Shown here: piece by piece, positions 682 to 59,600 of the stretch
How positions within the stretch are numbered: the stretch's first letter is position 1
Layout of the letters: each line of letters begins with the position of its first letter
Virus genome (UHGV): UHGV-1382945
Direction: 5' to 3' (one strand)
Length of the DNA: 62,026 bases
From: a virus
Position numbers and translations under genes: made by a program
Notes under the pieces: model-generated
Told to the model about the DNA's origin: nothing
The model's input: the letters and a program-made list of their open reading frames with translations, nothing else
Databases searched by the model: none

Positions 682-706
682 TGTTTATTTTCCTTGTATG
701 TTTGGC

Positions 707-4617: not shown

Positions 4618-4635
4618 AGTGTCCTCTACATAGAG

Positions 4636-4893
4636 TTATTGACCAACAGGCTTTGCACTAAGCGGACGCAACTCCGGAGGCAACTGTCTCCCTTCCTTCT
4701 CGCTTTCATAACTGCTTTTGCAGTGTTCTTTCTGCCAGAAGAATAGTCCGTTTACGAGCCTGCAAGGCCATGTTCTCACTCCATCTCGTGACCAACGATA
4801 ACAACGTGAGGACAAAGTCTCATCCGGCCATCCACCAAGGAGTGTATTGAGGAGCTGGTCGACGGCGATTAGCGTTCGCTTTCCGTAGGTCAT
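4636..4893 (-). CDS. hypothetical protein, 85 aa
   Basis: ORF fills gap in operon, start overlaps upstream stop. Confidence 0.35.
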   Translation of the reverse strand: MTYGKRTLIAVDQLLNTLLGGWPDETLSSRCYRWSRDGVRTWPCRLVNGLFFWQKEHCKSSYESEKEGRQLPPELRPLSAKPVGQ

Positions 4894-5453: not shown

Positions 5454-5465
5454 GTTTCCTTCTCC

Positions 5466-7253: not shown

Positions 7254-7262
7254 ATGTTACTC

Positions 7263-8045: not shown

Positions 8046-8760
8046 TTATATCACATCCTTCTGGAGGGAAAGTAAGATTAGGCCCATATACAGGGCAGTC
8101 ACAATTACAGTCGTCAAGCTTAATGACATCGCCGACCTTGATTATGACATCGATTACAGGCCACTCATGGTTGGCTTCTATGCTTGTCGCGTTCTTAGAA
8201 ATAACATTCGCCCAAGGTTTAGACTCTGCTATAGGTTCGATCTCAACAGCACTAAGCCGACCAATTACTACAGGAACAGCCATGTCCGTTCCAGCTTCAC
8301 AGAACCATGCACGCTGTATGATGTCAGCTTCAGTGTCATCCATATGCGTAACCGCTTCAATGGAAGTAACACCTATCCTACCTACAGTTTGCTTAGCTTC
8401 CATGTCTGTATCGGCTTCTATCAAAACACCTCTGATAACAAGATCAAAAGGAAGTTTGTACATGTTAACACGAGATACTATGTTAGTTCCTACGTCTGTG
8501 ATAGGAATAACCTTTCTTATATCTATGTTAGTCATGTCAGTTACAGCCCACATAGGAGTTGCGTTAGACTGAAGACGAACAGTTGAGTCAGCTAGAAATT
8601 CTGCAATGGCCTTAACCGTTACATTAGTTGTCGTAATGACATTACCTTGTGTAAGCAGATCGACAATAACATCTGCATTAACAGCACCAAGCTGATGGGT
8701 GCCTGCGTTTATCAAGGTAGTGTTGACAAGCATCCCATTAACAGGATTCAAGAGTGTCAT
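8002..8760 (-). CDS. hypothetical tail/structural protein, 252 aa
   Basis: ORF in late operon between head-completion genes and fibres. Confidence 0.5.
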   Translation of the reverse strand: MTLLNPVNGMLVNTTLINAGTHQLGAVNADVIVDLLTQGNVITTTNVTVKAIAEFLADSTVRLQSNATPMWAVTDMTNIDIRKVIPITDVGTNIVSRVNMYKLPFDLVIRGVLIEADTDMEAKQTVGRIGVTSIEAVTHMDDTEADIIQRAWFCEAGTDMAVPVVIGRLSAVEIEPIAESKPWANVISKNATSIEANHEWPVIDVIIKVGDVIKLDDCNCDCPVYGPNLTFPPEGCDINGNSICKQCGDDTL

Positions 8761-8784
8761 TGTCCACCTACCTCAAATAACTTT

Positions 8785-9222
8785 TTACACAGTGGTGCTG
8801 TCAGTAATACGAATGCTCGAAGTCTGAGCACGGATGATGAACTGGTCACCAGCATCTACGTCACGCGGACGTTCATCAAGCGTATTAGGGTTACGAATAA
8901 TACCCCAAGCCAGAACGTTACCGCCCGTTTTCGCATCCATGATAGCAACATGCGTCACACGACCCCAGTTAGAGATAGCAACCGGGAACTCGATGTTGGT
9001 CGCATTCTTCACTACACTGGCAGAAGGCGTCGTAAAAGCAGCGTTATCAGCCGCGACACGAGCGTAACCATCACCAGTAACTTCGTCCCTGTCAGGGCTG
9101 TTATCAGTCAAGCCCTTGGCAGACGTGAACAGAGCCCAGTACCTAGCAGGAGTGTTGTAGGTGACACCCTTAAACACGTGGCCAAGAATCTTGTTGTCAA
9201 GGTAAGTACTAAAACCAGACAT
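8785..9222 (-). CDS. hypothetical structural protein, 145 aa
   Basis: ORF in late operon. Confidence 0.5.
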   Translation of the reverse strand: MSGFSTYLDNKILGHVFKGVTYNTPARYWALFTSAKGLTDNSPDRDEVTGDGYARVAADNAAFTTPSASVVKNATNIEFPVAISNWGRVTHVAIMDAKTGGNVLAWGIIRNPNTLDERPRDVDAGDQFIIRAQTSSIRITDSTTV

Positions 9223-9233
9223 GTTATTTCCTT

Positions 9234-9926
9234 TTAGAAAATTTTATGTTTAATGGGGAGCATCGTCTTTGACTGAGCAACCCAAGACTTATAAGCCTTA
9301 GACTTAGCACGAGAGATACCCGCACGGAACTTGCGAATGTAGTAGTTCACAAGGTTAGGCTTAGACCAAACTCTACCGGACAGACTGTGCAAATAAGCAA
9401 GCGCACCGGCAGCAATGGTCTCAGCCCAGTCCGTGTATAGGAACTCAGGGATCTCATCAGCTTCTCGTGTAGGCTTCACAGCAGCAAGCATATGCAAGGC
9501 TTCAGGGATGTCTTCCGTAGGTACACCTACAAGGTGCATCACATTAGGATTCTCCATGTAGAAGTACTTAGGATACTTATCCTTACGCAGACGCCAATCA
9601 GGAGAATACGAGTCAAGGTCTTGCCTATTTGTTTTCTCTACTTGATACTGACGAAGTTGTTGTCCTTCACTAGCATCACGGATAGTAACAGTGACAGGCA
9701 TCACAAGCGTAGCATCTTTACCTATGATATTGATGCCATACCTAGGCTCATCCTTAACAAGATCTCCACAGTAGATCTCTTGCTGCCAAATAAGAGACTT
9801 CTCACAAAACTCAATACATGCGTTTCGCAGAGCTTCTTTCACCATAGCCACAGGACAACCATGCACGTCAGGACGCACGTACTTAAAGAAGTCTTCCCAA
9901 ACAGCGCTATTAAAGTGATCAATCAT
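9234..9926 (-). CDS. hypothetical head-tail joining/structural protein (~230 aa; start chosen at ATGA overlap with upstream stop)
   Basis: ORF 9234-9983 in track; internal ATG at 9926 forms ATGA overlap with stop of 9919-10641 gene. Confidence 0.5.
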   Translation of the reverse strand: MIDHFNSAVWEDFFKYVRPDVHGCPVAMVKEALRNACIEFCEKSLIWQQEIYCGDLVKDEPRYGINIIGKDATLVMPVTVTIRDASEGQQLRQYQVEKTNRQDLDSYSPDWRLRKDKYPKYFYMENPNVMHLVGVPTEDIPEALHMLAAVKPTREADEIPEFLYTDWAETIAAGALAYLHSLSGRVWSKPNLVNYYIRKFRAGISRAKSKAYKSWVAQSKTMLPIKHKIF

Positions 9927-10641
9927 TGTTTGGCTGTGCCTCCCCAAGATTCGTAGGTAGCTCATCAATCTTCGGCATAGCAACTACAGAAGCATTATAC
10001 TCCTGCCCCAAAGACTGATAAAAAGATTGGACGTACTGTTGTGCAAGCTGCCTGTCATTTGCAGAAGTACTATCAGTACTGTACGCAAGGTACAGCATGT
10101 AGTCTATGATAGGACCACGATAGTTGCCCATAAGCTGCAAGTCTTGCTGCATAGCAGCATCAACATCCATTTCTGCAAAAGAAGCATACGGTGCAGAGTA
10201 AGCCATCTCTACATAAACATCTTTATCTTTTGCTACCGGAGGGTTAACAAGAAACTGCCGAGGTGTCTTACGATCATATACAAATTCGTAGACAACATCA
10301 GAAGGAGTAGTTCGTCTCCAATCAGAGAAGTAGTCAAGATCTCTACGCTCTACCTGAAACACAGGTTCACCAAACGTAAAGGTGTTGTCTTCTTCCTTTG
10401 TAGCGTTACAGTAGATGTCAATAAGAGCATAAGCATCATCAGGAATAGTCTGACGAATACCGGGGTTCAACTTCACTACGTCAGTTTTAACCCATACGTC
10501 AGGACGCATCATGATCAGCTTATTAATAGCATCGTCAAGAAACTCAAGGTACTGGTGCTTTGAGAGTCGAGCATAGTCCATATCATTATACAGAAGAGTT
10601 ACTCTATTGATGATATCAGAGACTTTCATTATTACCCTCAA
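9919..10641 (-). CDS. hypothetical structural protein, 240 aa
   Basis: ORF in late operon downstream of capsid gene. Confidence 0.5.
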   Translation of the reverse strand: MRVIMKVSDIINRVTLLYNDMDYARLSKHQYLEFLDDAINKLIMMRPDVWVKTDVVKLNPGIRQTIPDDAYALIDIYCNATKEEDNTFTFGEPVFQVERRDLDYFSDWRRTTPSDVVYEFVYDRKTPRQFLVNPPVAKDKDVYVEMAYSAPYASFAEMDVDAAMQQDLQLMGNYRGPIIDYMLYLAYSTDSTSANDRQLAQQYVQSFYQSLGQEYNASVVAMPKIDELPTNLGEAQPNND

Positions 10642-10658
10642 GTAAGCAAAAAGTTAGA

Positions 10659-11228
10659 CTAACTATTCTTACGCGGACGACCGGGGCCACGCTTCACAGG
10701 CATCGTCAGCTTGATGTCAAGAGCATCAGCTTCCATCTTACCAACCTGTTCAGGAGTGGGAACCACTTCTTCCGTTCCGTCAACCTGTTCCTCAACATAA
10801 CCAAGGAACGTATAAGGATACGTAGGAATGTGAACTTCAATAGTAGACTGCCTACCGAATTCATCCTGCTGCGTCTGGAAAGACGTAGTGTACGCACGGT
10901 CAATGCATTCACGAAGCATATACTCAGGAACAATCACTTCCTTACCGTAAGGAGCTTGGAAGTTCTTGCTGTTCACAGAAGCGTACACATAAGGGCCAGC
11001 AGAAGGATTAGAAGACGTATGAAAGATAACCCGGCACTTACGTGCGTTCGAGTTCATACTAGCGTGGTCCTGTCTCCAGTCCATCAACAGACGAACAGCG
11101 TGTTTACGAATGAGCTTGTTGTCTTCCGTCAACGGAATGTGCAGACCACGTTCAAAAAGCATATCCCGAATCTGCATGTCAGAAGCAGAGTTGAGATCGG
11201 TGTCAGTAAAAACAGGAGTGTTAGCCAT
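10659..11228 (-). CDS. hypothetical capsid-associated protein with C-terminal AT-hook-like KRGPGRPRK, 189 aa
   Basis: ORF directly downstream of major capsid gene; C-terminus PVKRGPGRPRKNS. Confidence 0.5.
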   Translation of the reverse strand: MANTPVFTDTDLNSASDMQIRDMLFERGLHIPLTEDNKLIRKHAVRLLMDWRQDHASMNSNARKCRVIFHTSSNPSAGPYVYASVNSKNFQAPYGKEVIVPEYMLRECIDRAYTTSFQTQQDEFGRQSTIEVHIPTYPYTFLGYVEEQVDGTEEVVPTPEQVGKMEADALDIKLTMPVKRGPGRPRKNS

Positions 11229-11333
11229 AAAGATTATACCTTAAAATTTAGTTTGTAGAGCTAGGTGTAGCAGAGCTAGATACGAGAAAGGGGAGAACCC
11301 CAAGAGTAGTTGTTCTCCCCGTATGGTCAAGGC

Positions 11334-12371
11334 TTAGTAGTCGGTACAAGCGACTTCAGCGCGAACCATCCAAGCCTGATTGAGAATCACGCAGGTCTGC
11401 ATGGTCTTCCAAGCAACGTGGGCACGCTGAGCGAGCGGGTCAGATTCGGTATAAGAAGGATTGATGATCACCGGAGTCAGGGACTCAGCACCCTTCAGGG
11501 GCACCAGACCATAAGCATCCTTCGCAAGGAAGAGAATGGGGTACACGTCAGCCTTGGTACCGCTGGTCGAAACCATCGTGTCACCAGCAGCATTCGTCTT
11601 AGCACCACCAGCATCCGGCCAGCTCTTCATCAGAGTGGTGAAGAGGTAACGCACGCCTTCAACAGCACCGATTTCATTTTCCCACGGAGTCGTGTTGCCG
11701 TAGTCCTTCACGTCTTGGAAGTGAGGCATCGAACGGATGTCAGCTTCACAGTCGGGATGGCAAACAGCCACGAAGCAGGGAGAGATGGATTCAGAGTAGA
11801 AGCGAGGCGTGGACTTAATGCTATCGGTCAGGAAGCGAGCCTTCTGGTTCTTCAGCTTACGCGTAATGCGACGCTGCAGGGGCAGAGTGACGGGCGTATT
11901 CACGTCACCACGAGCTTCACCATTCGCATACTCAACGTTGGAACCGCCGAGCAGCACACCGATACGCATGTTTTCAACAGTTTCCGCAGCCTGTTCACCC
12001 ACGATCTGCGTGACCTGTTCCATAACAGGGGAATCGTTGGTATCGAGCAGAACGTCGGTCATGGTCACGAGGTTACCGTACTGGTGCACAGTGGCTTCAA
12101 TGTCGGTAACCGAGAAGGTCTGAGCAGTAGGCGTAACGCCTTCAGTCAGTTCCTTCGGCGTGGCATCAAGAGATTCAAAGCGACGGAACTTAGCGGTCTT
12201 CGTGCTCTTGGTCGGCAGGGGATAAGCCTGACCAAACTTTTCAAACACGAGGTAAGGAAGAGCACGGATGAGCATCTTAGCAACGACATACGCGTTGGCC
12301 ATCGTGCTAAGAGTACCATTAGTAGAAGAACTGGTAGCACCAGTGTGCATGATAGTATTCGGAGTAGCCAT
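11334..12371 (-). CDS. putative major capsid protein, 345 aa
   Basis: position after portal and acidic scaffold genes; size and composition typical of HK97-fold coat proteins; no domain verified. Confidence 0.5.
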   Translation of the reverse strand: MATPNTIMHTGATSSSTNGTLSTMANAYVVAKMLIRALPYLVFEKFGQAYPLPTKSTKTAKFRRFESLDATPKELTEGVTPTAQTFSVTDIEATVHQYGNLVTMTDVLLDTNDSPVMEQVTQIVGEQAAETVENMRIGVLLGGSNVEYANGEARGDVNTPVTLPLQRRITRKLKNQKARFLTDSIKSTPRFYSESISPCFVAVCHPDCEADIRSMPHFQDVKDYGNTTPWENEIGAVEGVRYLFTTLMKSWPDAGGAKTNAAGDTMVSTSGTKADVYPILFLAKDAYGLVPLKGAESLTPVIINPSYTESDPLAQRAHVAWKTMQTCVILNQAWMVRAEVACTDY

Positions 12372-12401
12372 TAGATATAATTCCTAATTTCAAAAACGAG
12401 T

Positions 12402-13358
12402 TTAGCGCGTCCGTCTGCTACGTTCATACTCACGGGCAAAGTCATCAAAAGACTTCTCACGAGGTTTGGCTTTAGGCTTATTGCTGATATCAATAGGCTC
12501 CTTGCCAGTACGAACTGCCATAGCAGCGAGCACTTGTTTAACAATGTCTTCAGTCTCAGACGCAGGATTTGTCTGCACCTGAGTAGAAGAAGCCCTAGTC
12601 ATCTGTGGCTTGTTAACGCCACGAGCAGACTTGTAGTCGTCCAGAAGAGAAATAACTTCCTGCGCCGTACCGTACTGATACACATACTTGGCACCGTTCT
12701 GCATCACAGGAGGCAGAGAGTTAATCCAAGTAAAGAGATCACCACTATCCATAATCGCATTGATATCGGGGTGGGCAGCACGGATAGCACTGAAATGTTT
12801 GTCCGCTTCGGACTGGAAGATCTGCTGCTGAATAGGTTCAACCCGAGTCTTAAGCTCAGTCTCAACGTTCTTCTTAACAGCAGACACCTTGGTATCAACA
12901 AGCGCTTTCACTGCATTAGCAATTTCAGGATGAATCTCAAAGAGTTCCTTCACATTGTCGGGAAGTTCATCTGACTCTTCCTTCTTCTGTTCAGGCACGT
13001 TCTTCGTGTCTTTGAGTTCCTGATACTTATGTGACAGATCTGCGAGTCTGCTAGCCCACAGAGTATTCTGTGCTTCAGCGTCACGCTTTGCCTTTTCATA
13101 AAGCTCTTTATAATTCAGAGGAAGCTCAGTAGTCTGTTGTTCGTTCTGAACAGGAGCTTCTTGTTCCTGTTCCTGTTCTTCGTTCTCAGGCTGAACTTCG
13201 TCGTCATCATTCTGGCTCACGACGTTTTCTTCTTCGGAAGGATCTTCAGGCTCACTCATGAAATCATCAAACGAGGGCTCTACCTTAGAGGGATCTTCGT
13301 AAGACTTCGCAAGTTCGTCGAAGGCTTCATTGAAATCTTTGTTGTTCTGATCGTTCAT
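12402..13358 (-). CDS. putative scaffolding protein, 318 aa
   Basis: highly acidic, coiled-coil-prone sequence (E/D/Q-rich) between portal and capsid genes. Confidence 0.5.
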   Translation of the reverse strand: MNDQNNKDFNEAFDELAKSYEDPSKVEPSFDDFMSEPEDPSEEENVVSQNDDDEVQPENEEQEQEQEAPVQNEQQTTELPLNYKELYEKAKRDAEAQNTLWASRLADLSHKYQELKDTKNVPEQKKEESDELPDNVKELFEIHPEIANAVKALVDTKVSAVKKNVETELKTRVEPIQQQIFQSEADKHFSAIRAAHPDINAIMDSGDLFTWINSLPPVMQNGAKYVYQYGTAQEVISLLDDYKSARGVNKPQMTRASSTQVQTNPASETEDIVKQVLAAMAVRTGKEPIDISNKPKAKPREKSFDDFAREYERSRRTR

Positions 13359-13398
13359 ATTTTTATAACTAAGTTAGGGAGGGTTATTACCCTAAGTC

Positions 13399-13662
13399 CT
13401 AACTGGCTTGGCTCATGAGCAAGTTGTCCGAGAGGGGCTCGCTCCCAAGTTCCAGTACATCCAAGAGCTTTTGTACCATACGTAGTTCACCGATAAGTCG
13501 GTCTACGTTGTCTGTATTATCAGGACTTAGTAACTTACTGTACCGTTGGCTTCTAAGAACCTTCAGGTAAGCAACTATATTCTTTTGTAAGTCGGCATTG
13601 GCCGTGAGCCTGAAGGCTTTCTCCAAGCTCACACGCCTACCGTTAAGTGGTGTATCAGTCAT
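13399..13662 (-). CDS. hypothetical protein, 87 aa
   Basis: ORF between portal and scaffold genes. Confidence 0.4.
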   Translation of the reverse strand: MTDTPLNGRRVSLEKAFRLTANADLQKNIVAYLKVLRSQRYSKLLSPDNTDNVDRLIGELRMVQKLLDVLELGSEPLSDNLLMSQAS

Positions 13663-30199: not shown

Positions 30200-30604
30200 G
30201 TGAGTGTTGACCAAGACGCCTTAGACATCCTGTGTGAAGTCTTCGATGATAGAGTAGAGGATGTCATGTCAAGTCGTGACAACCTCTCCTATACTCTGTA
30301 TGATGACGATGGCTATCCAATGGGCGCTGTTATCTATGATGTGTACGTGAAGGACGAACCACTGCCCTTTGTGTACGTATCATGGCTTGGGGTGCGCTAC
30401 CGTGGTATCGGCATTGGAGGACGGATACTTAGATACTTGCACCAGCAGTTCCCTAAGTACTGGTTCGTTTTAAGTACACGCAAGGCGAACTTGAACGCCA
30501 TCAGATTCTATCAACACCTCGGGTATGAAATAACTGGAGACTTACCCGGGTGTCCTCACTTCTATCATCTCCAGCGTAAACCTGAAGAGGAGTTCACAAC
30601 ATGA
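30200..30604 (+). CDS. GNAT-family N-acetyltransferase, 134 aa (GTG start)
   Basis: acetyl-CoA binding motif VSWLGVRYRGIGIGGRIL and NLNAIRFYQHLGYEI typical of GNAT fold; RBS AGGAGAGG. Confidence 0.6.
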   Translation: MSVDQDALDILCEVFDDRVEDVMSSRDNLSYTLYDDDGYPMGAVIYDVYVKDEPLPFVYVSWLGVRYRGIGIGGRILRYLHQQFPKYWFVLSTRKANLNAIRFYQHLGYEITGDLPGCPHFYHLQRKPEEEFTT

Positions 30605-31164
30605 GCGGTGATCAGAACAATAACAACCAGAACCAGCAGAAGCAGAAAGGTGGCAATCAGAACAGCCCGAAAGAAGGCATCACCATTGCTACCTCGGTCG
30701 TTCCGTCTCAGCCCTCCTCCGTCGGCCAGCAGGTACAGAGCGCTGTGGTCACCTGCATCGGTGGTGTTGTCGCTGCGATGGCGTGCGCTGGTGTGCAGAA
30801 AGGCTTCGACTGGGTTGTTGGTAAATGGACTGGTCGTAAAATTCGTCCTGTTTTCAACGTGACTCCCACCGGCCCCGCCACGGGTGGCTCCGGCAACATC
30901 ATGCAGGACTTGCATACCGTGGCTGGTACCAATCCTGATGAAGCCAAGCGTGCTATCCAGTCCGTGGCCAAGCGTCTCGGTATGCAGATCGGCCAGCCTG
31001 CCCCTGCTCCTATGACTGTCGACGCTGGTGTGGTAGAGATGACTCCTCCCACTCCGGCCCCTGCTCCTGCTCCCACCGCTGTTGGTGTGGTTCCCAGTGA
31101 AGCCGCTCTCAAGGTGGAGCCCAAGCAGCCCAAACCTCAGCAGGGTAAGGGTGGCAAGAAGTAA
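30601..31164 (+). CDS. hypothetical low-complexity protein (N/Q-rich N-terminus, PAPAP linker), 187 aa, GC-rich
   Basis: ORF with ATGA overlap to GNAT gene. Confidence 0.5.
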   Translation: MSGDQNNNNQNQQKQKGGNQNSPKEGITIATSVVPSQPSSVGQQVQSAVVTCIGGVVAAMACAGVQKGFDWVVGKWTGRKIRPVFNVTPTGPATGGSGNIMQDLHTVAGTNPDEAKRAIQSVAKRLGMQIGQPAPAPMTVDAGVVEMTPPTPAPAPAPTAVGVVPSEAALKVEPKQPKPQQGKGGKK

Positions 31165-32097: not shown

Positions 32098-32208
32098 CCT
32101 TTAATCTTACCAGTCCATGCGTACTCTCTGAGAAAGCCACGACCCCTACGGGAGGGTCACTGCCCAAAGGACATAGTGCGCATGGGCTGGCCTCTTTGGA
32201 GGTTTTAT

Positions 32209-33735
32209 ATGTCCATTGATCTGAACAAGCAATGGCCATCTCTGTTGTCTTATTACGTAGGTATTCCTGCTGATGGCACTAGCACTTACATCGAGAACAT
32301 CTACAAGCTGAGCAAGCAGAACAAGGCTAAGCTGGCTGCTAAGCTCGGGCTGCCTGACACGCTGACTGTTGAGGAAGAGGTTTTGGTTGATTTGAGTGAG
32401 AGGTTTGCGTTCTCATACAAGATTGCGTGTGCGGTGATGCCCGAAGACAAGAAGCCTACGTTTGATGAGTTCATCACGAATAGAACGGCTAACCAGATGA
32501 AGTTGTCCAAACGTATCTTGTCTTATGCCAAGACCAACAGTGGTGTGACTACAAAGATTCTCCTCAGTGGTTTGCATTCCACTACCTTCCGCATGAAGCT
32601 GAGTAAAGAGCTGCCAAAGGTTCCTAATGCCGGAGCGTTTGTTAAGAATACTGACTTAGCTGAAGATGCTTTGAGCATTCAGGACTACGACTACTATGCT
32701 GCCATCATTCAGAACATCTATTCTGAAATTGCGTCGATTAAGAAAGCGACTTACGGTTTCAGCATGGACATGTTCACGATGCTGTCGGCAGGCAGTAGCA
32801 ACAGTTTCTCGTCATGCTTTACGGTTGGAAGATTCAACAGCAAGGGTCCGCTTGATATAGCCCTCAGTCCCTTGACTGGTGTAATCTACAACCGACAAGG
32901 AAATAATGTCACCGGTAGAGCTTGGGTTGTTTTTGATAAAGACTTCAATAAGTTTGTTGTCATGAAGTCTTATGGGTTTATTGACGATGACATTATCAAG
33001 AAGGTGTGTAGTTGGTTGTGTGCTCTGCTCGATGACAAGGCAGACTGGTCATACATCAACGGGAACAATGAAGACGTTTATCTTTCCCTCGACTACAAGC
33101 CAGCAGGATGGTATCTCGACCCCATTCGTATGTTCTTTTTCTCGTCTACGTCTGACAAGACAAGGAACATTGATGTACACGGGTGCGTAGAAGCACCTTG
33201 TTTGTTGTGTGGTAAGCATCACACTAGATCGACACTCCTTTGCAGTGAATGCGAAGAAACAAAGCTGACTACCTGCAAACGGTGTAACAAGTTGATGCTT
33301 AAGACAGACAGAAACAAGATGTATCCTTTGTGCGATAACTGCGTTGAGAAGGTTACGTTCTGTCCTGTTTGCGGTGCACAGATGAAGGAAGGTAAGACCT
33401 GTCCTAAGTGTGCATGGAATAACATGTGCGCTGTCTGTGGAACCAAGTCGGATAAGCCTTTGAAGTGGATTGAAGGTATCCCTGTATGTGATAGCTGCAT
33501 CAGTCTCTTGCACAAGACGACCTGTGAATGTTGTGGTTCCCATGGTTTAATGTATCCTTATCGTGGTCATGCTTTGTGCAATACCTGTTATCAGCAGTTG
33601 TCTTCCCTGCCTTCGGCATCAATCAGCGAAGCACAGGTTCACATAAATCCTGATGTCTTAGAAAGATTTGTTGCCAACAACACTGACCTCAACATCAGCT
33701 GGAATGTCAGCGAAGGAGATAACAATGGGCATTGA
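32209..33735 (+). CDS. large hypothetical protein with C-terminal array of about five CxxC...CxxC zinc ribbons, 508 aa
   Basis: RBS GGAGGT before ATG 32209; C-terminal 200 aa contains 10 CxxC pairs (CLLCG, CSEC, CKRC, CDNC, CPVCG, CPKC, CAVCG, CDSC, CECCG, CNTC). Confidence 0.65.
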   Translation: MSIDLNKQWPSLLSYYVGIPADGTSTYIENIYKLSKQNKAKLAAKLGLPDTLTVEEEVLVDLSERFAFSYKIACAVMPEDKKPTFDEFITNRTANQMKLSKRILSYAKTNSGVTTKILLSGLHSTTFRMKLSKELPKVPNAGAFVKNTDLAEDALSIQDYDYYAAIIQNIYSEIASIKKATYGFSMDMFTMLSAGSSNSFSSCFTVGRFNSKGPLDIALSPLTGVIYNRQGNNVTGRAWVVFDKDFNKFVVMKSYGFIDDDIIKKVCSWLCALLDDKADWSYINGNNEDVYLSLDYKPAGWYLDPIRMFFFSSTSDKTRNIDVHGCVEAPCLLCGKHHTRSTLLCSECEETKLTTCKRCNKLMLKTDRNKMYPLCDNCVEKVTFCPVCGAQMKEGKTCPKCAWNNMCAVCGTKSDKPLKWIEGIPVCDSCISLLHKTTCECCGSHGLMYPYRGHALCNTCYQQLSSLPSASISEAQVHINPDVLERFVANNTDLNISWNVSEGDNNGH

Positions 33736-35275
33736 AAGACTCAAGGCAATCCTTCGCATGACAGATGCGGAGGTAATACAGAACATCGTTGGTACTCTGT
33801 CGAGTTCCGACGCTGGGTACAAAGTACTGACAGACAATGAGAACTTTGTCTTCGGTATTCCTACGACTGATACCATATGTCCTGTACTTTTACAGGCACA
33901 TGTGGACACAAAACGAAATGCCTCGGTGGATGAGCCTCTCATCTTGTGCACCGAGTACGGTGTCCTTACGAATGCCAATGGTATCCTCGGTGGTGATGAC
34001 CGCTGTGGTGTTGCCGGTATTCTGGACATCATTGAACGCCATACCAGTAAGCCATTCGTTCTCTTCACAAACTATGAAGAAACGGGTGGAAGAGGCATGA
34101 AGTATTTCCTCAACACGGGCTATCTCAACAAGTTCGTTGACTATATTTATTGTGTCATTGCTCTTGATAGAAGAGGGCACAATGAATATGTATACTATAG
34201 CCCTACGTTACCGAGCAAGCTGCACTACTTCCTTGCCAAACTCGGTTACTATGAGGCCAGTGGTATTTACTCTGATTGCTGTGACATTTGGAAAGAGCAC
34301 GACATCGCTCATGTCAATCTGTCATGCGGCTATGGTCGGCAGCACACAGCTGATGAGTTTATCTTGGTTGAAAGCTATGTGTCTTCCATCCTTCGTGCTG
34401 ATCGTTTGATGCAGATGATTGACGAACCCTTCCGAGTAAAGGAACGTTTCTCGTACCGAAGCGGATACGGGCATTCGTCTGTCACCTATACTCTTCCCAA
34501 ACCTACTGACAATGCTGGTCAAGGTTCTGCTGCTCTCGAGATAATAGGTAGCGAAGAGCTTGCATCTGATGATGGCCCTGAACATACTGAAGAAACTCAT
34601 ACCTGCTCACCTGTTCACATGCCTCCTGAAGCGGTGTACGCATACTCTGCTGCACCGAAATGCTTTGTGTGTGCACGTGACGACAGGCCGATGGAGTACG
34701 ACACCAAGAACAGTTTCTTCATCTGTGAAACGTGCAAAAGACAAATCATGAAACACTTCGATACGGTGACAGTCCCCAACGCTATGGCGTACTACGACCT
34801 GCTTGAGGAAGTCAGGGCCAAGAGCCGCGAGGCTAACAGGAATTTGAACAAGGCCAAGCTCAAGGCGAAGAGTTCTCTTCCTGTGTGTCCGGGATGCGGT
34901 GACAATCACCATGTCATCTGGTCGAGGAAGGACATAGGATTTGTGTGCACGTCTTGCTTTGAGTATCCTACTACCGATGGATACAACGGTAAGTTCTGGG
35001 TACGAGGAGACAAGAAGTTCTTTGTGAAGACAGTGGATGGTAAGCAAATGGTACTGGTGACAGACATCAAGGGTGAACGTCTTCTGTCAAGTGAAGAGCT
35101 GTCGAAGAGCAGTAAACTTCACCAGTGCGCTGTCTGCCATGAGCCTCACATCTCCTGCTCTTGTGAAACCATAGGCAAGACAAGAAAGGTAAACGTTTAT
35201 GTTTGCCCCTCTTGTAAACAAGAAGCCTTGGACACACTTCTCAACGACAATCTCCCTCCGTGGGACTTGGACTAG
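33725..35275 (+). CDS. putative M20/M28-clan dinuclear-zinc hydrolase domain fused to C-terminal zinc-ribbon array, 516 aa
   Basis: RBS AAGGAGA; N-terminal motifs QAHVDT, GGDDRCGVAGIL, NYEETGGRG, HTADEF match the HxD / D / EE / H metal-ligand pattern of M20/M28/M42 peptidases; C-terminus has 6+ CxxC pairs. Confidence 0.55.
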   Translation: MGIERLKAILRMTDAEVIQNIVGTLSSSDAGYKVLTDNENFVFGIPTTDTICPVLLQAHVDTKRNASVDEPLILCTEYGVLTNANGILGGDDRCGVAGILDIIERHTSKPFVLFTNYEETGGRGMKYFLNTGYLNKFVDYIYCVIALDRRGHNEYVYYSPTLPSKLHYFLAKLGYYEASGIYSDCCDIWKEHDIAHVNLSCGYGRQHTADEFILVESYVSSILRADRLMQMIDEPFRVKERFSYRSGYGHSSVTYTLPKPTDNAGQGSAALEIIGSEELASDDGPEHTEETHTCSPVHMPPEAVYAYSAAPKCFVCARDDRPMEYDTKNSFFICETCKRQIMKHFDTVTVPNAMAYYDLLEEVRAKSREANRNLNKAKLKAKSSLPVCPGCGDNHHVIWSRKDIGFVCTSCFEYPTTDGYNGKFWVRGDKKFFVKTVDGKQMVLVTDIKGERLLSSEELSKSSKLHQCAVCHEPHISCSCETIGKTRKVNVYVCPSCKQEALDTLLNDNLPPWDLD

Positions 35276-37080: not shown

Positions 37081-37214
37081 CCATTGGCAAGAAGACCATG
37101 AGCATCTTCGAGATCATTCGTAAGTTGTTCTGGAACGTGATCAACATCATCAGCAACGCCCGTTCTATCTGGCGTACTTTGTGCAAGGCGGTTAAGGAGG
37201 TGTGTCATGCTTAG
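37017..37214 (+). CDS. hypothetical protein, 65 aa
   Basis: strong RBS AGGAGGTG before ATG; overlaps primase 3' end. Confidence 0.5.
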   Translation: MFGFGKKTYDGPTWKDVSIGVTIGKKTMSIFEIIRKLFWNVINIISNARSIWRTLCKAVKEVCHA

Positions 37215-37494
37215 CTTCAACGACAAGACTGTCACTTTTGTGAAGTCTTCCTCTTCCTCTGGGTATGACGTACAGCGTACCCTGTCTCGTAAACGTAACC
37301 AGCTGTCGAACTTCTACGACATGCAACTGGTCGTGTGTGAAGACTGTGAAACTCTCTTCGCTGACAAGCTTAAGGACATGCCCTGTCCTAAGTGTGGTTC
37401 CACTGTTCGCAAGTATCACACGTACACCACTGCGAGCCTCGGCTATCTTGACAACATCAGGATGAAGTCGTTCGACTACGCCATGGCCGCCTAA
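37207..37494 (+). CDS. zinc-ribbon protein, 95 aa
   Basis: strong RBS AAGGAGGTG; CEDC...CPKCG. Confidence 0.55.
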   Translation: MLSFNDKTVTFVKSSSSSGYDVQRTLSRKRNQLSNFYDMQLVVCEDCETLFADKLKDMPCPKCGSTVRKYHTYTTASLGYLDNIRMKSFDYAMAA

Positions 37495-39461: not shown

Positions 39462-41426
39462 ATGCCTTACGCGGTACTCGACATAGAATGTTCTAAAGCA
39501 CCGAAGCACATGCCTTGGACAGTAGGTTCCTTCTTGTGCTCTGTTGGAATTGAACGTCAGGACGGTACCTCAACCGTGTGGTTCTTCAATCCGAATAGCA
39601 GGCCACACGAAGAACTTCTTGCTGAAATCCAACAAGAGATTGACAAAGTTGATGTTTTGGTTGGACACAACATTAAGTTCGACTTGAACTGGTTGAAGTG
39701 GATTGGTTTGAATGTCAAGAACAAACCAGTCTGGTGTACGATGATAGCTGACTATCTCATAAATGGTCAGGGTAGACTTGAGTACAGTCTTAATGCTGTT
39801 GCAGAACGCTATGACCTAGGGCGTAAGCTCGATGCTATGGCTATGTACTGGCAAGCTGGATACGAGACGGATGAGATTCCGTTGGAGATTCATGAAGACT
39901 ATCTCAAGCAGGACATACATCTTACACATGCCGTGTTCAAGAAGCAAGTCCCACTCGTTGAGCGTGCAGGACTTGACAAGATAACGGAACTTTCTTTCCG
40001 TATAACCCAGATTCTTTCTGATGTAGAAGTATCTGGTGCAGCCTTCGACAAAGAAGAAGCCACTGCTTACTGTGATCAAACACGTGATCAAGTTAAAGCA
40101 ATGGACAAGACGCTTGTCGAACTGGCTGGCATTGACTTTACTCCCTCCTCTGCTCCACAACTCAGTGCTGTTTTGTATGGTGGTTATCTAAAGAAGGAAG
40201 TTCCTGAACTTGTAGCTCGTCAGCTGAAGAGCGGTAAGTTTAAGATCACCACACGTAAGACTAAGATCGAGATTCCTATCAAGGGACTTGGCTTCAAAGT
40301 TCCAGAAGGCTGTGTATCCAAAAAGACTGGCTTGCCTTTGACCGATAAGAATACTCTTGATCTATTAAAGTCTAACGACGAATGCTCTGAGTCCTTCCTT
40401 CAAACACTACGAGATCAGAAGAAGCTGAACAAAGTAGTGTCCACAATTGCTGGTTCCAAAGAAGAAAAAGAGACAGGCCTGATTGCTGTCATCGGTAAAG
40501 ATGGCAGACTTCATCCTTCCTTTAACCAGTGCGTAACACGTACAGGTAGACTCTCTTCTTCAAATCCGAACGGGCAAAACTTTCCCCGTAGTGGTACCAG
40601 CCCCATCAAAACATTCTTTAAAAGTACACAAGGGGTTATAATAAACATTGACTTAGCTCAGATTGAATGGCGTATAGCTGCTGAGTTAAGCCGTGATCCT
40701 GTGATGCTTCGTGAGTTGAACGAAGGTCTGGACATTCATGCTGATAATGCTTTACGTTTCTTCGGTGCAGACAAGTATCCGAGAGACTCGAAAGAGTTTA
40801 AGAAACTTCGCACTACTGCAAAGACAATGTCATTCCGTCTTTTATACGGTGGTTCAGCCTCTGGGTTCTACAAAGATCAACGGATGCCTGACTACAGTCT
40901 AAAGAAGTGGAAAGAGATTGTAGCAGCTTTCTACCAAAAGTATCAAGGACTTAAGAAGTGGCAAGACACAAACATGCAGATTGCCAAGTCACGTGGGTAT
41001 CTTCGTAATCCATCTGGACGTGTCCTTACGTTTGACAACATGATGGGATACGATGGTGTAGAAACTGTTGACGGTAAGCAGGTGTCAAACTATCCAGTAC
41101 AGTCTGGGTCGACTGACGTTATGTACTTGCTTATGTGGAAGTTGCTTACACGTACACAAGAGTTTAAACTTCTTGCTAAGTTTATTCTTCAAGTGCACGA
41201 CTCTATGGTATTTGACGCTCCTATTGAAGAAGCAGAGACGTTATGTCGTGAAGCTATCAAGCTGATGCATAGCCTTCCTCAGCTTGCTAAAGAATACTTT
41301 GGTTGGGATATTGCGGCTCCCTTGACAGGAGACTGTGAGATAGGGTATGATTATGGTAACATGAAAGAGATCAAGGAAGAAGATATGGATAAGATCTTCG
41401 CCGATCTTCCTGCCTTCTTGTCTTGA
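39462..41426 (+). CDS. family A DNA polymerase with 3'-5' exonuclease domain, 654 aa
   Basis: Exo I VLDIECS, Exo II VGHNIKFDLNWL; Pol motif A RTGRLSSSNPNGQNFPR, motif B KTMSFRLLYGGS, motif C QVHDSMVFD. Confidence 0.9.
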   Translation: MPYAVLDIECSKAPKHMPWTVGSFLCSVGIERQDGTSTVWFFNPNSRPHEELLAEIQQEIDKVDVLVGHNIKFDLNWLKWIGLNVKNKPVWCTMIADYLINGQGRLEYSLNAVAERYDLGRKLDAMAMYWQAGYETDEIPLEIHEDYLKQDIHLTHAVFKKQVPLVERAGLDKITELSFRITQILSDVEVSGAAFDKEEATAYCDQTRDQVKAMDKTLVELAGIDFTPSSAPQLSAVLYGGYLKKEVPELVARQLKSGKFKITTRKTKIEIPIKGLGFKVPEGCVSKKTGLPLTDKNTLDLLKSNDECSESFLQTLRDQKKLNKVVSTIAGSKEEKETGLIAVIGKDGRLHPSFNQCVTRTGRLSSSNPNGQNFPRSGTSPIKTFFKSTQGVIINIDLAQIEWRIAAELSRDPVMLRELNEGLDIHADNALRFFGADKYPRDSKEFKKLRTTAKTMSFRLLYGGSASGFYKDQRMPDYSLKKWKEIVAAFYQKYQGLKKWQDTNMQIAKSRGYLRNPSGRVLTFDNMMGYDGVETVDGKQVSNYPVQSGSTDVMYLLMWKLLTRTQEFKLLAKFILQVHDSMVFDAPIEEAETLCREAIKLMHSLPQLAKEYFGWDIAAPLTGDCEIGYDYGNMKEIKEEDMDKIFADLPAFLS

Positions 41427-53694: not shown

Positions 53695-56600
53695 TTAATC
53701 CCTATAGTCAAGACCTGACTGCTTAGCTACACGAGTAAGTTCCTTCATCAAGAATTCCTTGCGCTTCTGCAGCCGTTCCTTTTCTTCGTAGTACTTAGCA
53801 CCCGAAGACCTGTTGTTCTTTTCATTTAACTTCTCAAGCTTACGCACACTGTTCAAGCGAGCGTTGATAGAATCATACCTACCCTTGAGCTGCTGAATAG
53901 TTCTGTTCTTATTCATGATTGCAGTACGTTCGTCAGGAGAAAGAGTATCGTCCTTCCTCGCAAGATCAAGTTCGTTCAAGCCAATCTGAATCTTATTACG
54001 AACCTTACTGTACTCATTGAGCGTATCACCGTAGCCTACCTTACCAAAGAAAGAACTGGCGAGGGGTACGTTCTTCAGCTCAACAGGAGCACCAGTAACA
54101 GGAGAAACCATTATGTTAAGAGCTTGTGTAATAACTCTGCCAAGACCACCCATGTACGATTCAGTAAGATGCTGAATGGTTTCAGGAGACACGTCAATCC
54201 AACCCTTCTCAACCTTAGACCCGAACGTCCAAGAGTTCAGTGTCTCTGCCACAACACGACACCACATAGGATTAGTACCCCAGTACTTCTGACTGTTAGG
54301 TACTTCACCCTTAAAGCTGTGCGTGCTGTCAGGCATAAGGGCATAGCCAAAGCTGTTCTGATTGGCTACTACTTCACTGATAGGACGTAAGATAGTAGGC
54401 ATGAAGTTCAACAAGGAAGCTCCACCAACAGGGTTGAAATTATCAAAGGAAGCACCAAAGATTTTAGCAGCAGCAGAGGAAGGTTTGGTGCGTCCGCTGA
54501 TTACACCTTCTATTGCATTAGAAGCTACCCAGAAGATATTGTAACCATAAGGCAAGGGGATCTTTACATAGCCGCCATCACCAAAGGGTGCAGGTATGAT
54601 AAGGTTACTGTCCTTGATGTAGTCAGGAATCTTATCGTACTTACTCACACCGTCATCGTCATCACCCATAAGCCATCTGCACAACAAAGCATGAGGAATA
54701 CCACAAGCTATTGAGTAAGCCATGTAAGCAGCAGTTCTTTTTGCGTTGTTGGCAAAGCTATCTCCACGCCTCCAGAGGTTACGCAGAATACGGACGTTAC
54801 CACCGATGTTAGCAGAGGAGAATGCCCACAGACTGTTAAAGAACGGAGCCCATGAACCCTTACGAGTAAAGTTAACCGTGATCTCCAGAGCTTCGTTAGC
54901 TGCACGTTGATGTGCAGTTTCCATCATCTCTTGCATCTGTTGAGCAGACCAACCATTACGCTTAGCTTCCTGAGCAATATGGTTGTCAAACTCCTGTGTC
55001 AGAGCAACAAACACAGAGAACCGGGTAGCGTTTTCAGACACGTCAGAAATAGTGTCCAGATACTTGAGAGCCTTATCAAGAGTCTCCTTAAACTTACCCT
55101 TCTGCTTTGACAGTTCACGTACATCCTTGTACATAGTCTTGTAGTCATTAGCAAGGAACATACGAGTATGCCCGCCAGACTCAGTAAACTTCTTGTACAT
55201 CTCCTTGAGGTACGCTGCATCCTTACCGCCATATTCCTTACCGTTCAGTTCTGCCCAGAGGAACTTGACCATGCGCATAGACATAGCATCCTTAATGATA
55301 CGCTGACGAATGTTGTTCTCTTTACCAAGCAGGTTATTGGCCTGTGCTTCAGAGATCACATTACCTACGTTAAGGATAGCAGTCTGAATATCACGAGGAT
55401 AGTTCTTGATAGCAAATACAGGGTTGAACGTAGTGTACAAAGCAGCAAACTTCTGAGTTATCTTACGAATGTTGTTAATGATTGCGCCTGTTTCAAGGTT
55501 GTTCTCGTTACGCAAAGCAGCAGCAAGTGCTACGTCCTTGATAGCAATACGAACACGGTTACCCTTCTCATCAATTACGTTGATGAACTTGTAGTCTTTA
55601 CCTTCAAGACTATGTGACTTCCTCACATAGGCAAGAGTACCGTCTCCCTTCTCAGACATACGGAAGTATGGCTGTCCCTTCTCATTCTTATCCGTAGCGA
55701 TTTCCCACAGCTCTTCGTTAGGAGCTTCTCGAACGAGGTTGAGCAGACGACGAGACACATCGTTCTTCTCACCGATGTTGATAGTATCCATGATCTGTAA
55801 CATCAGGTGTGTAGAAGGACTTTCTGCAAGACCTTCCCGCCCCTTCGCCTTCTTCAACAACTCCCGACCACCCATAGAAATACCAGCCTTAGATCTCTTA
55901 TGCGCATAGTCAGGGTCAAGGTCGTCAACGAATTCTTCCCAGTTCTTCAACGGGACATAGTGCTTATAGGTAGCACGCAGCTTGTCAGTAAGAGTCTTAG
56001 GTACAATGTGATACTTATCCAGCAAGTCCAGATGGTATCTACCAAGCTGGTCAAACTGTGCAGCTATCTCGTTCATACCCGGCACATCAGAGTACTTATC
56101 AATAATAGCCTGCGCCTGCTGGTCAGTAAGACCAGAAGGAGACTCTAGCTTATTCTTACCACGATACCGCCTGTTGACTTCAGCGTTACGTTCCAGCGCA
56201 TGTCGAGCCAGAAGGAACTCATCAAGAGCAGACCAAATAGCATTCACTCTGTCCTGTTCAGTAACCTTACGACCAGCCTTGCGCAGAGCATCAAGAGCTT
56301 CCTTCACAGCAGGAATGTCAAGCTTACCAATCTTTTCACAAAGAGGGGCAAACTTCTGGTTCATGATATCAGTACGCTGTTCGTTAATCCTGTTCACCAT
56401 ACCGGTCAAGTGACGGTAGATGTTCGTAGCAGGAGTGATGATATTCTTACCGATCGTTTCCTTGATGTACCTCTGCACAACCTGAACACGACGATACTTG
56501 TCGTACATACCATCTGCAAGTCTTTCAAAGCCAGTGTGTGAAACAAGCTTACCATCCAAGCCTACGGACTTGCCGATGTTTCTTATACGAGCAATAAGAC

Positions 56601-59600
56601 CGTTCCACTTCTGCTGTCTCATCTGTGCACGCTTCCACTCTTCAAGGTAGAGAGGAGGCATGTCACTGTAAGTAGTATCTTCAGTTATCATGAAGCGAAC
56701 TTCAGGAGAACTATATGCAGGAGCAGTATGACTGATGTCATCACCTTCAAACAAACAATAGCTCTGAGAGGTGTTGTAGTTAAAGGTAGTACCAGCCACA
56801 CCCAAGTCTCTCAGCATACTGGAGATCTGCTTAGTATCGTTAAGCTGAGAAGCAAGGTATTCGTACACATCCTGACCGGTCACACGTTCAAGGTACTTCT
56901 TGCTCTTCATAAACTGAGTAAGTTCATTCTTGTCAAGGAAGACACCAATGTCCTTACCCAAGAACTGGATATGCATACCGTCCTGTGCAGGAACCTGCTG
57001 AGGAGGCATCTGCTTGAACAAACGATTGAGATGTTCTGCAACATATCTTTGTTCAGACAGAGGACGTTCCCAGTTCATGAACTGTTCAAAGGAAGGAGCG
57101 TAGTTCTTGTAGATCTGTCCGGGAAGACCAGACTGCTTGTTGTTAAATCTCCTGAAATAATCAGCAAGCTTCGTAGGATGAGAGAAGTAAGTTCCCCAAC
57201 CATACGGAGCAGCGAAAGCGTCAGGGCCCACAAGGTCAACACGTTCGTACTGAGGAGCCACGTCATTCATAGCCGAGCTCATGTACGTAGCACGACCCCA
57301 GATAGTGTAGCCAGAAGAAACACCTTGAGGCTTGTTGCTAGCAAGGTTCTGTGCAGAAGCAGCAAGGACATCCTTGATATCCGCTTCAGTAACATAACCA
57401 TCTACACCAAACAACTTCTGATACAACTTACGAATAAACTTGTACAGGTCACTAATGACAGGGAGCCGTTCAAGCAAAGACTTAGGAGACTCACGTTCAG
57501 CTATCCAAGCAATGAACTCTTCTGTGCGAACAAGGTCATTAGCGTTCTCGTATGCAGGACGCTGACGTTCAAACTCTCTCCACAGAGGAGTACCGTAAGC
57601 ATCACGGTAGACAGCAGCCATGAACCCAGTAAACTGACGAGGAGTCATGATAGCACGCAGACCATAGTGAGCAACGCCTTCGTGCATAAGCAGACGTACT
57701 GCCTGTGCCTTAGACTTTACTCGGTCAGCGAACACGTAGATCTTCCCGTCACAGTACACTGCCTGCGGGATAGCTTTCTTGTTTGTACTCTTAAAGGACA
57801 AATTAACAAGAGCATCATGCACAGCAGTAGGTACGTTGCTGTCAGTGACAGAAGAACAGATAGACACAACATCCTTCAAACCGGGAAGCTGAGCCAACGT
57901 ATTCTTCATCCAGTCGTACACTTGTTGAGTAGCTTCAGAAGCAAGCTGGTAGTCTACTTCCTTTTCCTGCTGAGTGTACCGTTCAAAGGACTGGCGCTGT
58001 ACTTCAATGTCATTACGAATCTGCTTGGACCGCTGCTCTTGCTTATACATACGCTTGAGCTGTTCAGCCTCAAGGTCACGACGAGCTTGAGAAGTCTCTT
58101 GAGGAATAGCCTGACGTGCAGGGATGTTGCCATCCAAAGCGTTGTCATAGCTAGCCTTGTCCTGAGCCACCTTAAGCTGTGCCTGATAAGCAGGAGAAGC
58201 CTCATATGCACGCTGCTGTTGTTCAGCAATCATGTTACGCATGTACTGGTCAGCAGCAACTCTATCACGATCAATCTGATTGTTCAGAGCAGCAGCTTGT
58301 TCAAGAGCAACATTCTGCTGAAGAGCACCATACTTCTGTGTGAAAGCATCAGCACTAGGAAGAGCAGCCTGCTGATTAGAGGAGCCCATCTGTGCAGCCT
58401 GCCAGTCAGCAAAGTCTGCATCCCACGTATAGTTGGGATCGTTGGTCAGCTTAGCTGTGCTGCGCAGAGCACGTGCATTCTTAAGCAGAGCATCAATACG
58501 GTCTTGAGTTTCCTTGTCTGCAAGATCCTTCAGCTGCTTGCGCAAGTCAAGTTCAAAAGGAACAGCAGGGTCAAGCCTGTCTGCCTTAGCAAACAAGGCA
58601 TCCATGTTCGTCTGAACTTCAGTCAAGTCCTGAGCACGTGCAGTAGAACGAGCAAAATTAACAGCAGACTTTCTAACATCTGCCTTCATTCTGCTCATCT
58701 GTGCAAGGTCTTTGTCAATACGAGCAAGCTCACTTGTAACAAACTCATACTGGCGTTCACTGTACGGAATAGCATTCTGCTGCAGGAGTTCAAGGTATAC
58801 GTTGTATTCACTTCTGCGTGCGTGCAGCTTAGACATACGTTCATCAGCACGGTTGAGCTTACGCTGTACGTACTGCTGAGTATCTTGAATGCTATTTATA
58901 ATCTCAGTGTACTTGACTGGGTCTTTCTTAAACAAAGCTTCCTGATACCTACGGTCATCAACAATCTGTTCAGCCGTAAGGTTGGTATCATAGCCAAGCT
59001 TCTTAAAACGTTCTGTTACAGTTTCACGGAAAGCCTTACGAGCCTTCTTATCAGACTCAGAAAGGTCCTTCTCAAACTGTTGCTTACGCTGCTTGATGTC
59101 TTCACGCTCTGCTTGAGCAAGCCGGGCAAGCTGGGCAGTGTACTTCTGCTGGGCTCGTTCAAGCTTCTTGATGTATGCATCCTTTGCTTCTTGCGTAGCA
59201 AGCAGAGCATACTTAGGAGACGTACCTGCACGAGCAGTAGTCAGCTCTTCCTTTGTCTTACGCAAAGCGTTGACAATAGGATTACGAGCACGAGCAAAAG
59301 ATTCTTCAGAAACAGCTACAGCTCTCTGTGCTTCTACACGAATAGCATCGCGCATGATACCTTCACCCTTAGAGATCTGAGTGAAGGGGTCAATCTTAGT
59401 CAGTTCTTCTTCAAACTTAGTCTGAAGTTCAAGAGGCGTCTGGTCTGGGTTAACATACGGAATGTCTGTCTTAGGTGAATGCTTAAGCATGTCAACCATA
59501 ACGCTAGCTCCACCAGAGGCAGAACCAACAAGAGCACCAGCAATACCAGCTTCCATCATACGGTCGAAGTCATCAGCAGTAAGCTGAGCACGTCCATCCT

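Follow-up and report, generated by a model that had tools for sequence, protein, structure and literature searches.

The gene pair described here, P1 and P2, lies on the plus strand of the virus genome UHGV-1382945, a stretch of 62,026 nucleotides (nt) hereafter called the window. It brings together a recognisable enzyme and a new domain family bearing a clear candidate active site. Judged from its sequence, the N-terminal domain of P2 is very probably an active dinuclear metallohydrolase of the clan MH, while the N-terminal domain of P1 matches no described family; each domain is followed by an array of zinc ribbons, and the two genes remain neighbours in very distant phages. The reading that we favour, albeit tentatively, is that P1 and P2 form a two-gene early/middle module, probably translationally coupled, with two products that jointly act upon a protein or peptide of the host or of the phage.

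The assignment of P2 relies on several profile comparisons. Residues 2-219 match phrog_34186 (1.2e-23) and residues 29-220 match phrog_4191, annotated as peptidase (9e-22). A P2-family profile made from 13 divergent phage homologues (26-72% identity) retrieves from the PDB the PepT-like structure 3gb0 (1e-19) and the tripeptidase 3rza (1.3e-16), and, with weaker scores, M42 TET/FrvX, PepD, carboxypeptidase G2, ArgE and an M28 aminopeptidase. P2 was also compared with the models PF01546 (M20), PF04389 (M28), PF05343 (M42) and TIGR01883. The three Pfam scores are below gathering (18.7 versus 21.3 bits for M28, 14.5 versus 24.6 for M20 and 11.5 versus 23.2 for M42), and the NCBIfam PepT-like model TIGR01883 is matched at 7e-11 with 41.7 bits for a cutoff of 274. 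The five-ligand order of the clan MH, i.e. His, bridging Asp, Glu, Asp/Glu and His, is found in P2 as the putative metal ligands H59, D91/D92, E119, D148 and H207, and the catalytic Asp of H-x-D and the general base of E-E have their putative counterparts in D61 (H59-V-D61) and E118 (E118-E119). All these residues are invariant in 13/13 phage homologues, as are the motifs HVD (59-61), GGDDRCG (89-95), EETGG (118-122) and HTADE (207-211) that contain them. In the alignment with 3gb0 and 3rza, H59-x-D61, D91-D92, E118-E119 and H207-T208 fall on the HxD, DD, EE and HT motifs, D148 being assigned as the fourth metal ligand by spacing and not by explicit alignment. It is because of this motif alignment with PepT and of the invariance across the 13 homologues that we consider P2 to be very probably an active metallohydrolase. 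The first-pass annotation of the window, made from the DNA alone, had proposed an M20/M28/M42-type domain of the clan MH at the start of P2 from the motifs HVD, EETGG and HTADE; the PHROG, NCBIfam and PDB profile matches and the full ligand pattern bear this proposal out.

With PepT and PepT-like peptidases (MEROPS M20B; 3gb0, 3rza, 1fno; TIGR01883), P2 shares the motif order H-x-D, G-x-D-D-[KR]-x-G, E-E-x-G, D, H-T-x-x-E, a set in which the ligands of the two metals, the catalytic Asp and the catalytic Glu are all represented. It differs from them by the absence of the lid/dimerisation domain, which in M20 enzymes interrupts the catalytic domain after the third/fourth ligand and ahead of the fifth: where 3gb0 has the ~157 residues of its lid (160-317), the P2 family has only ~40 (profile positions 137-177). 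Since the lid is replaced by such a short segment, the active site should be open, as in single-domain M28 enzymes. P2 further departs from PepT in scoring far below the curated cutoffs, in carrying an acidic linker and three C-terminal ribbons and in being phage-encoded beside a dedicated partner gene. With M28 (2ek8) and M42 TET/FrvX (2cf4, 1y0r) enzymes it has in common a single-domain, lid-less catalytic architecture and the same ligand pattern, and the matches to them are weak yet significant (1.5e-3 for Pfam M28, 9.5e-9 for TET1). However, P2 does not reach the Pfam gathering scores, lacks the PDZ-like/dodecamerisation domain of M42 and is nearer in sequence to M20B than to M28.

The peptidase domain is an already known, uncharacterised phage family, of which P2 is a lid-less, ribbon-fused variant. 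Indeed, residues 1-220 of P2 are a member of PHROG 4191/34186, together with gp22 of Bacillus phage Tsamsa, gp6 of Enterococcus phage H1 and the peptidase of the Aquificae Joseph's Coat Spring virus. By tblastn, P2 is 28-34% identical to proteins of this type, and homologues in Bacillus, Brevibacillus and Enterococcus phages carry the annotation peptidase, M20 or aminopeptidase, a further homologue being present in the Aquificae virus. Unlike P2, the PHROG 4191/34186 proteins have 266-357 amino acids (aa) and zero or one ribbon, and none is characterised; among the phages that encode them, only the Enterococcus phages share P1-like neighbours.

The N-terminal domain of P1 is the most novel part of the pair. 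No match to Pfam, PHROG, NCBIfam or PADLOC was obtained for this domain, either in the window protein or in 63 family members, and a HMMER profile search of 1.84 billion representatives returned only 65 clusters at E <= 1e-3, mostly of 460-620 aa and with the same layout of N-terminal domain followed by ribbons. The domain is marked by the motifs N91-x4-G-x-K98-x-S100, E134-L-P-x-x-P139, Q168-N169 (within the conserved family motif Q-N-x-x-S-E-x-A), S185, S202-C203, G236-R237-x-W239, Y255-G256, W280 and Y302-x-D304. Cys203 (codon 32815-32817) is conserved in 63/63 members, Ser202, Arg237 and Tyr255 in 62/63 each, Gly256 in 60/63, Asp304 in 59/60 and Asn91 in 58/62. P1 had been regarded in the first-pass annotation as a zinc-ribbon protein; its five ribbons are there, whereas the 325 residues that precede them, with their invariant Cys and putative remote GNAT-like fold, had been overlooked.

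The fold was examined on an AlphaFold2 model built from a 63-sequence alignment (predicted local distance difference test, pLDDT, 90.4; predicted template modelling score, pTM, 0.75), which supersedes a poor model obtained with 8 sequences only (pLDDT 60.7). A Foldseek search of the PDB gave no significant match (best E 0.064); GNATs rank first and are the sole recurrent structural neighbours of the model. In BFVD, the matches are confined to uncharacterised phage proteins, from an Enterococcus phage, Dickeya phage JA29, Agrobacterium phage Atu_ph07 and uncultured phages. In our reading of the model, the order of elements in residues 180-284 would fit beta1-alpha1-alpha2-beta2-beta3-beta4-alpha3-beta5 of the GNAT fold, which continues with alpha4-beta6; Ser202-Cys203 would then be in the alpha1-alpha2 loop and Tyr255-Gly256 at the place of motif A. 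GNAT motif A (Q/R-x-x-G-x-G/A), the loop from beta4 to alpha3 that binds pyrophosphate, is itself not found in P1, where only Y255-G256 is conserved at that position, and Pfam GNAT models match 0/63 family members. P1 was rejected as a GNAT at the sequence level, as the hhalign comparison with the window's own GNAT gave a probability of 0.07%. Because there is neither a coenzyme A (CoA)-binding motif nor a signal at the sequence level, we place P1 in a new family of its own, whose core would be remotely GNAT-like, and not among the GNATs. Compared with enzymes of the GNAT fold such as RimI, AAC(3) and Gcn5, P1 lacks the Q/R-x-x-G-x-G/A CoA-binding motif, its invariant Cys has no canonical counterpart, and it possesses an extra helical N-terminal region of 160 residues as well as the zinc ribbons.

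Co-occurrence of the pair in other phages, which the first-pass annotation had put forward as a check, was found in all informative loci: a P1-family gene adjoins a P2-family peptidase gene down to 23% identity for P1 and 29% for P2. The P2-like gene is directly downstream of the P1-like gene in the window and in loci L001-L004, L007, L009-L011 and L021-L034. Close or moderate relatives are L001/L002, L032-L034 and L021-L031, and L003/L004, L007 and L009 are distant ones, the identity in L003/L004 being 23% for P1 and 29-30% for P2. At L010, the P2 profile matches the neighbouring protein of 408 aa at 8e-43, and upstream there is another P1 paralogue (5e-23). L011 (logan SRR30255803 contig, 1-13560) is T7-like and encodes a tyrosine integrase, a T7-type terminase and a single-subunit T7-type RNA polymerase; the pair comes shortly before the genes of the integrase and of the RNA polymerase, with a 30-aa open reading frame (ORF) between the P1-like gene and the peptidase gene. 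L008 is uninformative as the contig ends at the gene. In Enterococcus phage H1 (L005, OP534061.1, 2766-6091), the peptidase gp6 lies between two P1-domain paralogues annotated as hypothetical, gp5 of 399 aa, which has no ribbon, and gp7 of 335 aa, which has one. The hhalign probability is ~97.6% with an E-value of ~1e-12 (H1_5, H1_7), and the same gp5-gp6-gp7 arrangement is present in Enterococcus phages EF1, EF5 and VRE9_1-4. These cultured relatives emerged from profile comparison alone: tblastn with P1, P0069 and P0092 gave no match in cultured phages. A viral-contig scan with a closer alignment found only close relatives. Bacillus phage Tsamsa and the Aquificae virus have the peptidase without a P1 neighbour; in the latter, the gene preceding the peptidase was considered as a possible partner and discarded, as it is not P1-like. 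Since they have remained neighbours in phages that are very far apart, P1 and P2 probably work together. A full-text search of the literature found no description of the pair, and both the P1 domain and its conserved pairing with a peptidase appear to be previously undescribed. The first-pass annotation had spoken of an undescribed phage module, which is not quite right for the peptidase domain, a member of PHROG 4191/34186.

The conserved pairing bears on the possibility that P2 acts alone, as a PepT-like tripeptidase or aminopeptidase supplying amino acids by scavenging, P1 being unrelated or a mere chaperone. Tripeptidases and dipeptidases (PepT, PepD, TIGR01883) are indeed the nearest solved or curated relatives of P2, and the peptidase stands alone in some phages. 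We nevertheless judge this role unlikely, as the loss of the lid, the fusion to three ribbons and the strict adjacency to P1 at 23% identity would be unexpected of a housekeeping peptidase, and hosts already encode several such enzymes.

As for the zinc ribbons, about five and three to four of them had been claimed in the first-pass annotation, and the CxxC motifs give five in P1 and three in P2. The 10 motifs of P1 pair as C331/334-C345/348, C356/359-C375/378, C385/388-C398/401, C407/410-C427/430 and C439/442-C457/460, and the 6 motifs of P2 as C313/316-C334/337, C388/391-C408/411 and C468/471-C494/497; the stretch that separates the first P2 ribbon from the second includes a conserved basic helix, SREANRNLN (aa ~365-375). 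By our estimate, a protein of such size and ordinary Cys content would contain ~0.1 CxxC by chance. All eight are paired CxxC knuckles, spaced 10-25 residues apart and with conserved Cys residues; the ribbon Cys are nearly all invariant in alignments of close and distant homologues, the exception being C391 of P2. Among known families, the double zinc ribbons (Pfam DZR PF12773 and DZR_2 PF18912) resemble the arrays by their tandem CxxC-x(n)-CxxC units, but the P1 array is longer (5 units) and the DZR families have no defined function. DZR_2 matches window P1 at 2.6e-4 with 21.2 bits, below its gathering cutoff of 27; among the family members, DZR_2 matches 27/63 and DZR 13/63. The P1 profile searched against PDB sequences gave only generic Cys-rich matches located over the ribbons, and no similarity is detectable between the P1 and P2 arrays of the window. 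One P1 subfamily (P0069, P0072, P0076, P0079, P0080, P0089, P0094 and P0095) has acidic arrays, of net charge -24 to -40, in which a regular repeat displays a conserved Asp and a Tyr-Cys; P0080 (808 aa) also has a long extra C-terminal region.

Relatives of P1 have anywhere from 0 to 7 ribbons and those of P2 from 0 to 3, and because of this variation we regard the ribbons as accessory. The net charge of the arrays spans +11 to -40 across relatives, the clade of the window being mildly basic, and for this reason the arrays cannot all bind nucleic acid. This is relevant to a non-enzymatic role as scaffold or regulator, in which the ribbons would bind DNA, RNA or the host polymerase and the N-terminal domains would be structural remnants. 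The mildly basic arrays of the window, the position of the pair directly upstream of the primase-helicase-polymerase genes and weak generic matches to ribosomal and PriA zinc ribbons would agree with such a role. Yet it is the MH catalytic residues and the Cys, Arg, Tyr and Asp of P1 that are invariant or nearly so, while the ribbons are dispensable; the ribbons of one subfamily are strongly acidic, and the PDB matches reflect generic CxxC similarity. We therefore hold a scaffold to be quite improbable.

The features of the pair are collected in Table 1. The first-pass annotation had described two adjacent, overlapping genes, and the overlap is of 11 nt, which suggests translational coupling of P1 and P2. 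The junctions in relatives are equally tight, from a 16-nt overlap to a 29-nt gap, and a Shine-Dalgarno-like motif precedes both start codons. The ATG at 32209 is taken as the start of P1 because of the upstream GGAGG and of the homologues of 508 aa. Comparison with close relatives gave ratios of non-synonymous to synonymous substitution rates (dN/dS) of 0.09-0.12 for P1 and 0.03-0.14 for P2, indicating purifying selection. These values, together with full-length homologues on ~60-kb metagenomic contigs, establish P1 and P2 as real coding sequences, and the longer minus-strand ORFs located within them, which have no support, are taken as spurious. With respect to L024/L025, dS is 0.78 for P1 and 0.34 for P2, a more than two-fold gap between adjacent genes, and the protein identity is lower for P1 (83%) than for P2 (90%). 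This suggests either a recombination boundary near the P1/P2 junction or a faster evolution of P1. A promoter and terminator scan of the 29-38 kb region found sites no more numerous than in shuffled sequence.

Table 1. Position of the P1-P2 gene pair and of its parts in the window
Feature	Position	Strand	Description or basis
Shine-Dalgarno-like GGAGG	32198..32202	+	6 nt upstream of the P1 ATG; sequence GGCCTCTTTGGAGGTT TTATATG
P1 gene, 508 aa	32209..33735	+	New N-terminal domain, then five zinc ribbons
P1 N-terminal domain, aa 1-325, new family	32209..33183	+	Profile search, conservation
P1 approximate alpha/beta core, aa ~160-312, remote GNAT-like fold (predicted)	32686..33144	+	Model
P1 five-ribbon array, aa 331-460, net charge +6	33199..33588	+	CxxC...CxxC pairs
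P1 stop/P2 start overlap, 11 nt	33725..33735	+	ORF coordinates
P2 gene, 516 aa	33725..35275	+	Lid-less MH-clan peptidase domain, acidic linker, three zinc ribbons
P2 metallohydrolase domain, aa 1-245	33725..34459	+	PHROG, NCBIfam and PDB profile matches
P2 acidic linker, aa 246-310, net charge -9, poorly conserved	34460..34654	+	Alignment
P2 C-terminal region, three zinc ribbons and conserved basic helix	34661..35215	+	CxxC motifs, alignment

In the mechanism that we favour, P2 would be a catalytically competent dinuclear-metal hydrolase of the clan MH, closest to PepT-type M20 enzymes, that has lost the lid/dimerisation domain. Its presumably open site could accommodate the N-terminus of a protein, or a bulky substrate bearing an N-acyl or aminoacyl group, and not tripeptides alone. 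P1 would be its obligate partner. The polar set made of Cys203, Ser202, Arg237, Tyr255 and Asp304 looks like the site of an enzyme or of a ligand-binding protein, and because of this set and of the predicted GNAT-like core, P1 is proposed to be either another enzyme, whether a hydrolase or a Cys-dependent transferase of acyl or aminoacyl groups, or a subunit presenting the substrate. The ribbon arrays may serve as variable accessory modules that tether P1 and P2 to each other or to their target. We infer that the two proteins associate, or work one after the other, during takeover, with a macromolecule or another bulky molecule as their substrate; the purpose would be host takeover or counter-defence. 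A loose precedent is provided by Rac, a GNAT of phiKMV-like phages that acetylates the alpha subunit of the host RNA polymerase and leads to its cleavage (reviewed in PMC7824862).

A more specific version of joint action, to which we give a low likelihood, is the editing of protein N-termini: P2 would trim the N-terminus of certain host or phage proteins, and P1, as a GNAT-like Cys-dependent enzyme, would then cap or extend it with an acyl or aminoacyl group. Such a succession can be likened to that of MetAP and NAT, or to the GNAT-fold Leu/Phe-tRNA-protein transferase of the bacterial N-degron pathway.

The purpose of the module can also be considered in light of its genomic surroundings. The window resembles a complete or near-complete podovirus-like phage genome. 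The minus strand, at 1-18 kb and 53-62 kb, carries the structural genes (major head protein, portal/adaptor, large terminase, internal virion protein, tail fibre and a giant protein of 2327 aa), and the plus strand, at 18-52 kb, carries the early and replication genes, encoding a GNAT acetyltransferase, primase, DnaB-type helicase, family A DNA polymerase, exonuclease, T7-type endonuclease I, ligase, DHH phosphoesterase and ThyX. The pair is part of the early/middle block, just upstream of the primase, helicase and DNA polymerase genes, in agreement with the placement given in the first-pass annotation. A role in the virion or in morphogenesis, with P2 as a maturation protease and P1 as an internal or ejected protein, is highly improbable in this setting: the genes are on the early/replication strand block, ~15 kb away from the structural genes, and the pairs of L011 and Enterococcus phage H1 are also outside the structural modules. 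MH-clan exopeptidases are not known to serve as prohead proteases. This role would otherwise be in line with the fact that phages often encode head-maturation proteases and that the window phage has very large virion proteins. Like the scaffold considered above, it fits the conservation pattern and the gene position poorly.

The early location also speaks for an anti-defence effector, the idea of the first-pass annotation, envisaged here as the destruction by P2 of a peptide, aminoacyl or acyl immune signal, or as the removal of a conjugate that a host defence system has attached to a protein, with targeting ensured by P1 and the ribbons. A standalone homologue in Bacillus phage Tsamsa is found four genes from an ocr-like anti-restriction gene, and the family is phage-restricted and patchy, with fast-evolving P1 paralogues, as is typical of conflict genes. 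On the other hand, the pair is stably syntenic with replication genes across deep divergence and does not reside in a variable accessory island. The PADLOC scan gave only noise at E >= 0.012 over the ribbon regions, no literature link was found, and no immune signal is known to be a substrate of MH-clan enzymes. An effector of this kind is thus conceivable, and we rate it as rather unlikely.

With regard to the phage itself, the DNA polymerase of the window is ~30% identical to polymerases of podoviruses infecting Proteobacteria, and there is no close cultured phage. A near-identity DNA search of the pair region against 50,697 phage records gave no match, and no copy was found by a prophage search of 185,579 GTDB species genomes. 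In metagenomes, near-identical contigs of ~60 kb are plentiful, from samples whose names suggest human gut cohorts, and the 90%-identity cluster of P2 alone has 811 member sequences. There are no tRNA genes in the window. DNA hypermodification was considered and set aside: the window encodes ThyX, ligase, endonuclease I and DHH phosphoesterase but no hydroxymethylase or kinase set.

Several neighbouring genes deserve mention. At 30200-30604 (+), three genes ahead of P1, lies the gene of a small GNAT acetyltransferase of canonical type (phrog_3810/1249); its position is kept in L001/L002 (weak match to Pfam Acetyltransf_10), and none was seen in more distant loci. The 187-aa ORF at 30601-31164 (+), with Asn/Gln-rich and Pro/Ala-rich low-complexity segments flanking a hydrophobic stretch, has no family match, and a 178-aa gene occupies its position in L001/L002. 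Between primase and helicase, a 95-aa ORF (37207-37494, +) with no PHROG match contains one CxxC...CxxC ribbon (CEDC...CPKC). The family A DNA polymerase is a single ORF of 654 aa in the window (39462-41426), and it is split into three ORFs (374, 126 and 214 aa) in L001 (15959-18450) and L002 (12309-14800), possibly by intervening elements or frameshifts. The C-terminal ~900 residues of the 2327-aa ORF (53695-60681, -) match the giant PHROGs 14770, 616 and 10691, which are profiles of 2800-3900 positions with no assigned function; its product is probably a very large virion or ejected protein.

The module recurs in phages as different as ~60-kb podovirus-like contigs, a T7-like contig with an integrase and 140-kb Enterococcus phages, and because of this recurrence it stands as a widespread, uncharacterised piece of early phage biology. 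Its presence in cultured phages of Enterococcus faecalis/E. faecium (H1, EF1, EF5 and VRE9_1-4) means that it can be approached by phage genetics and biochemistry. P1, if enzymatic, defines a new family, and a pair that modified host proteins or overcame a defence system would represent a new takeover mechanism. Should the editing of N-termini prove true, the stability or activity of proteins would be reprogrammed during takeover, with P1 as the founder of a new enzyme family.

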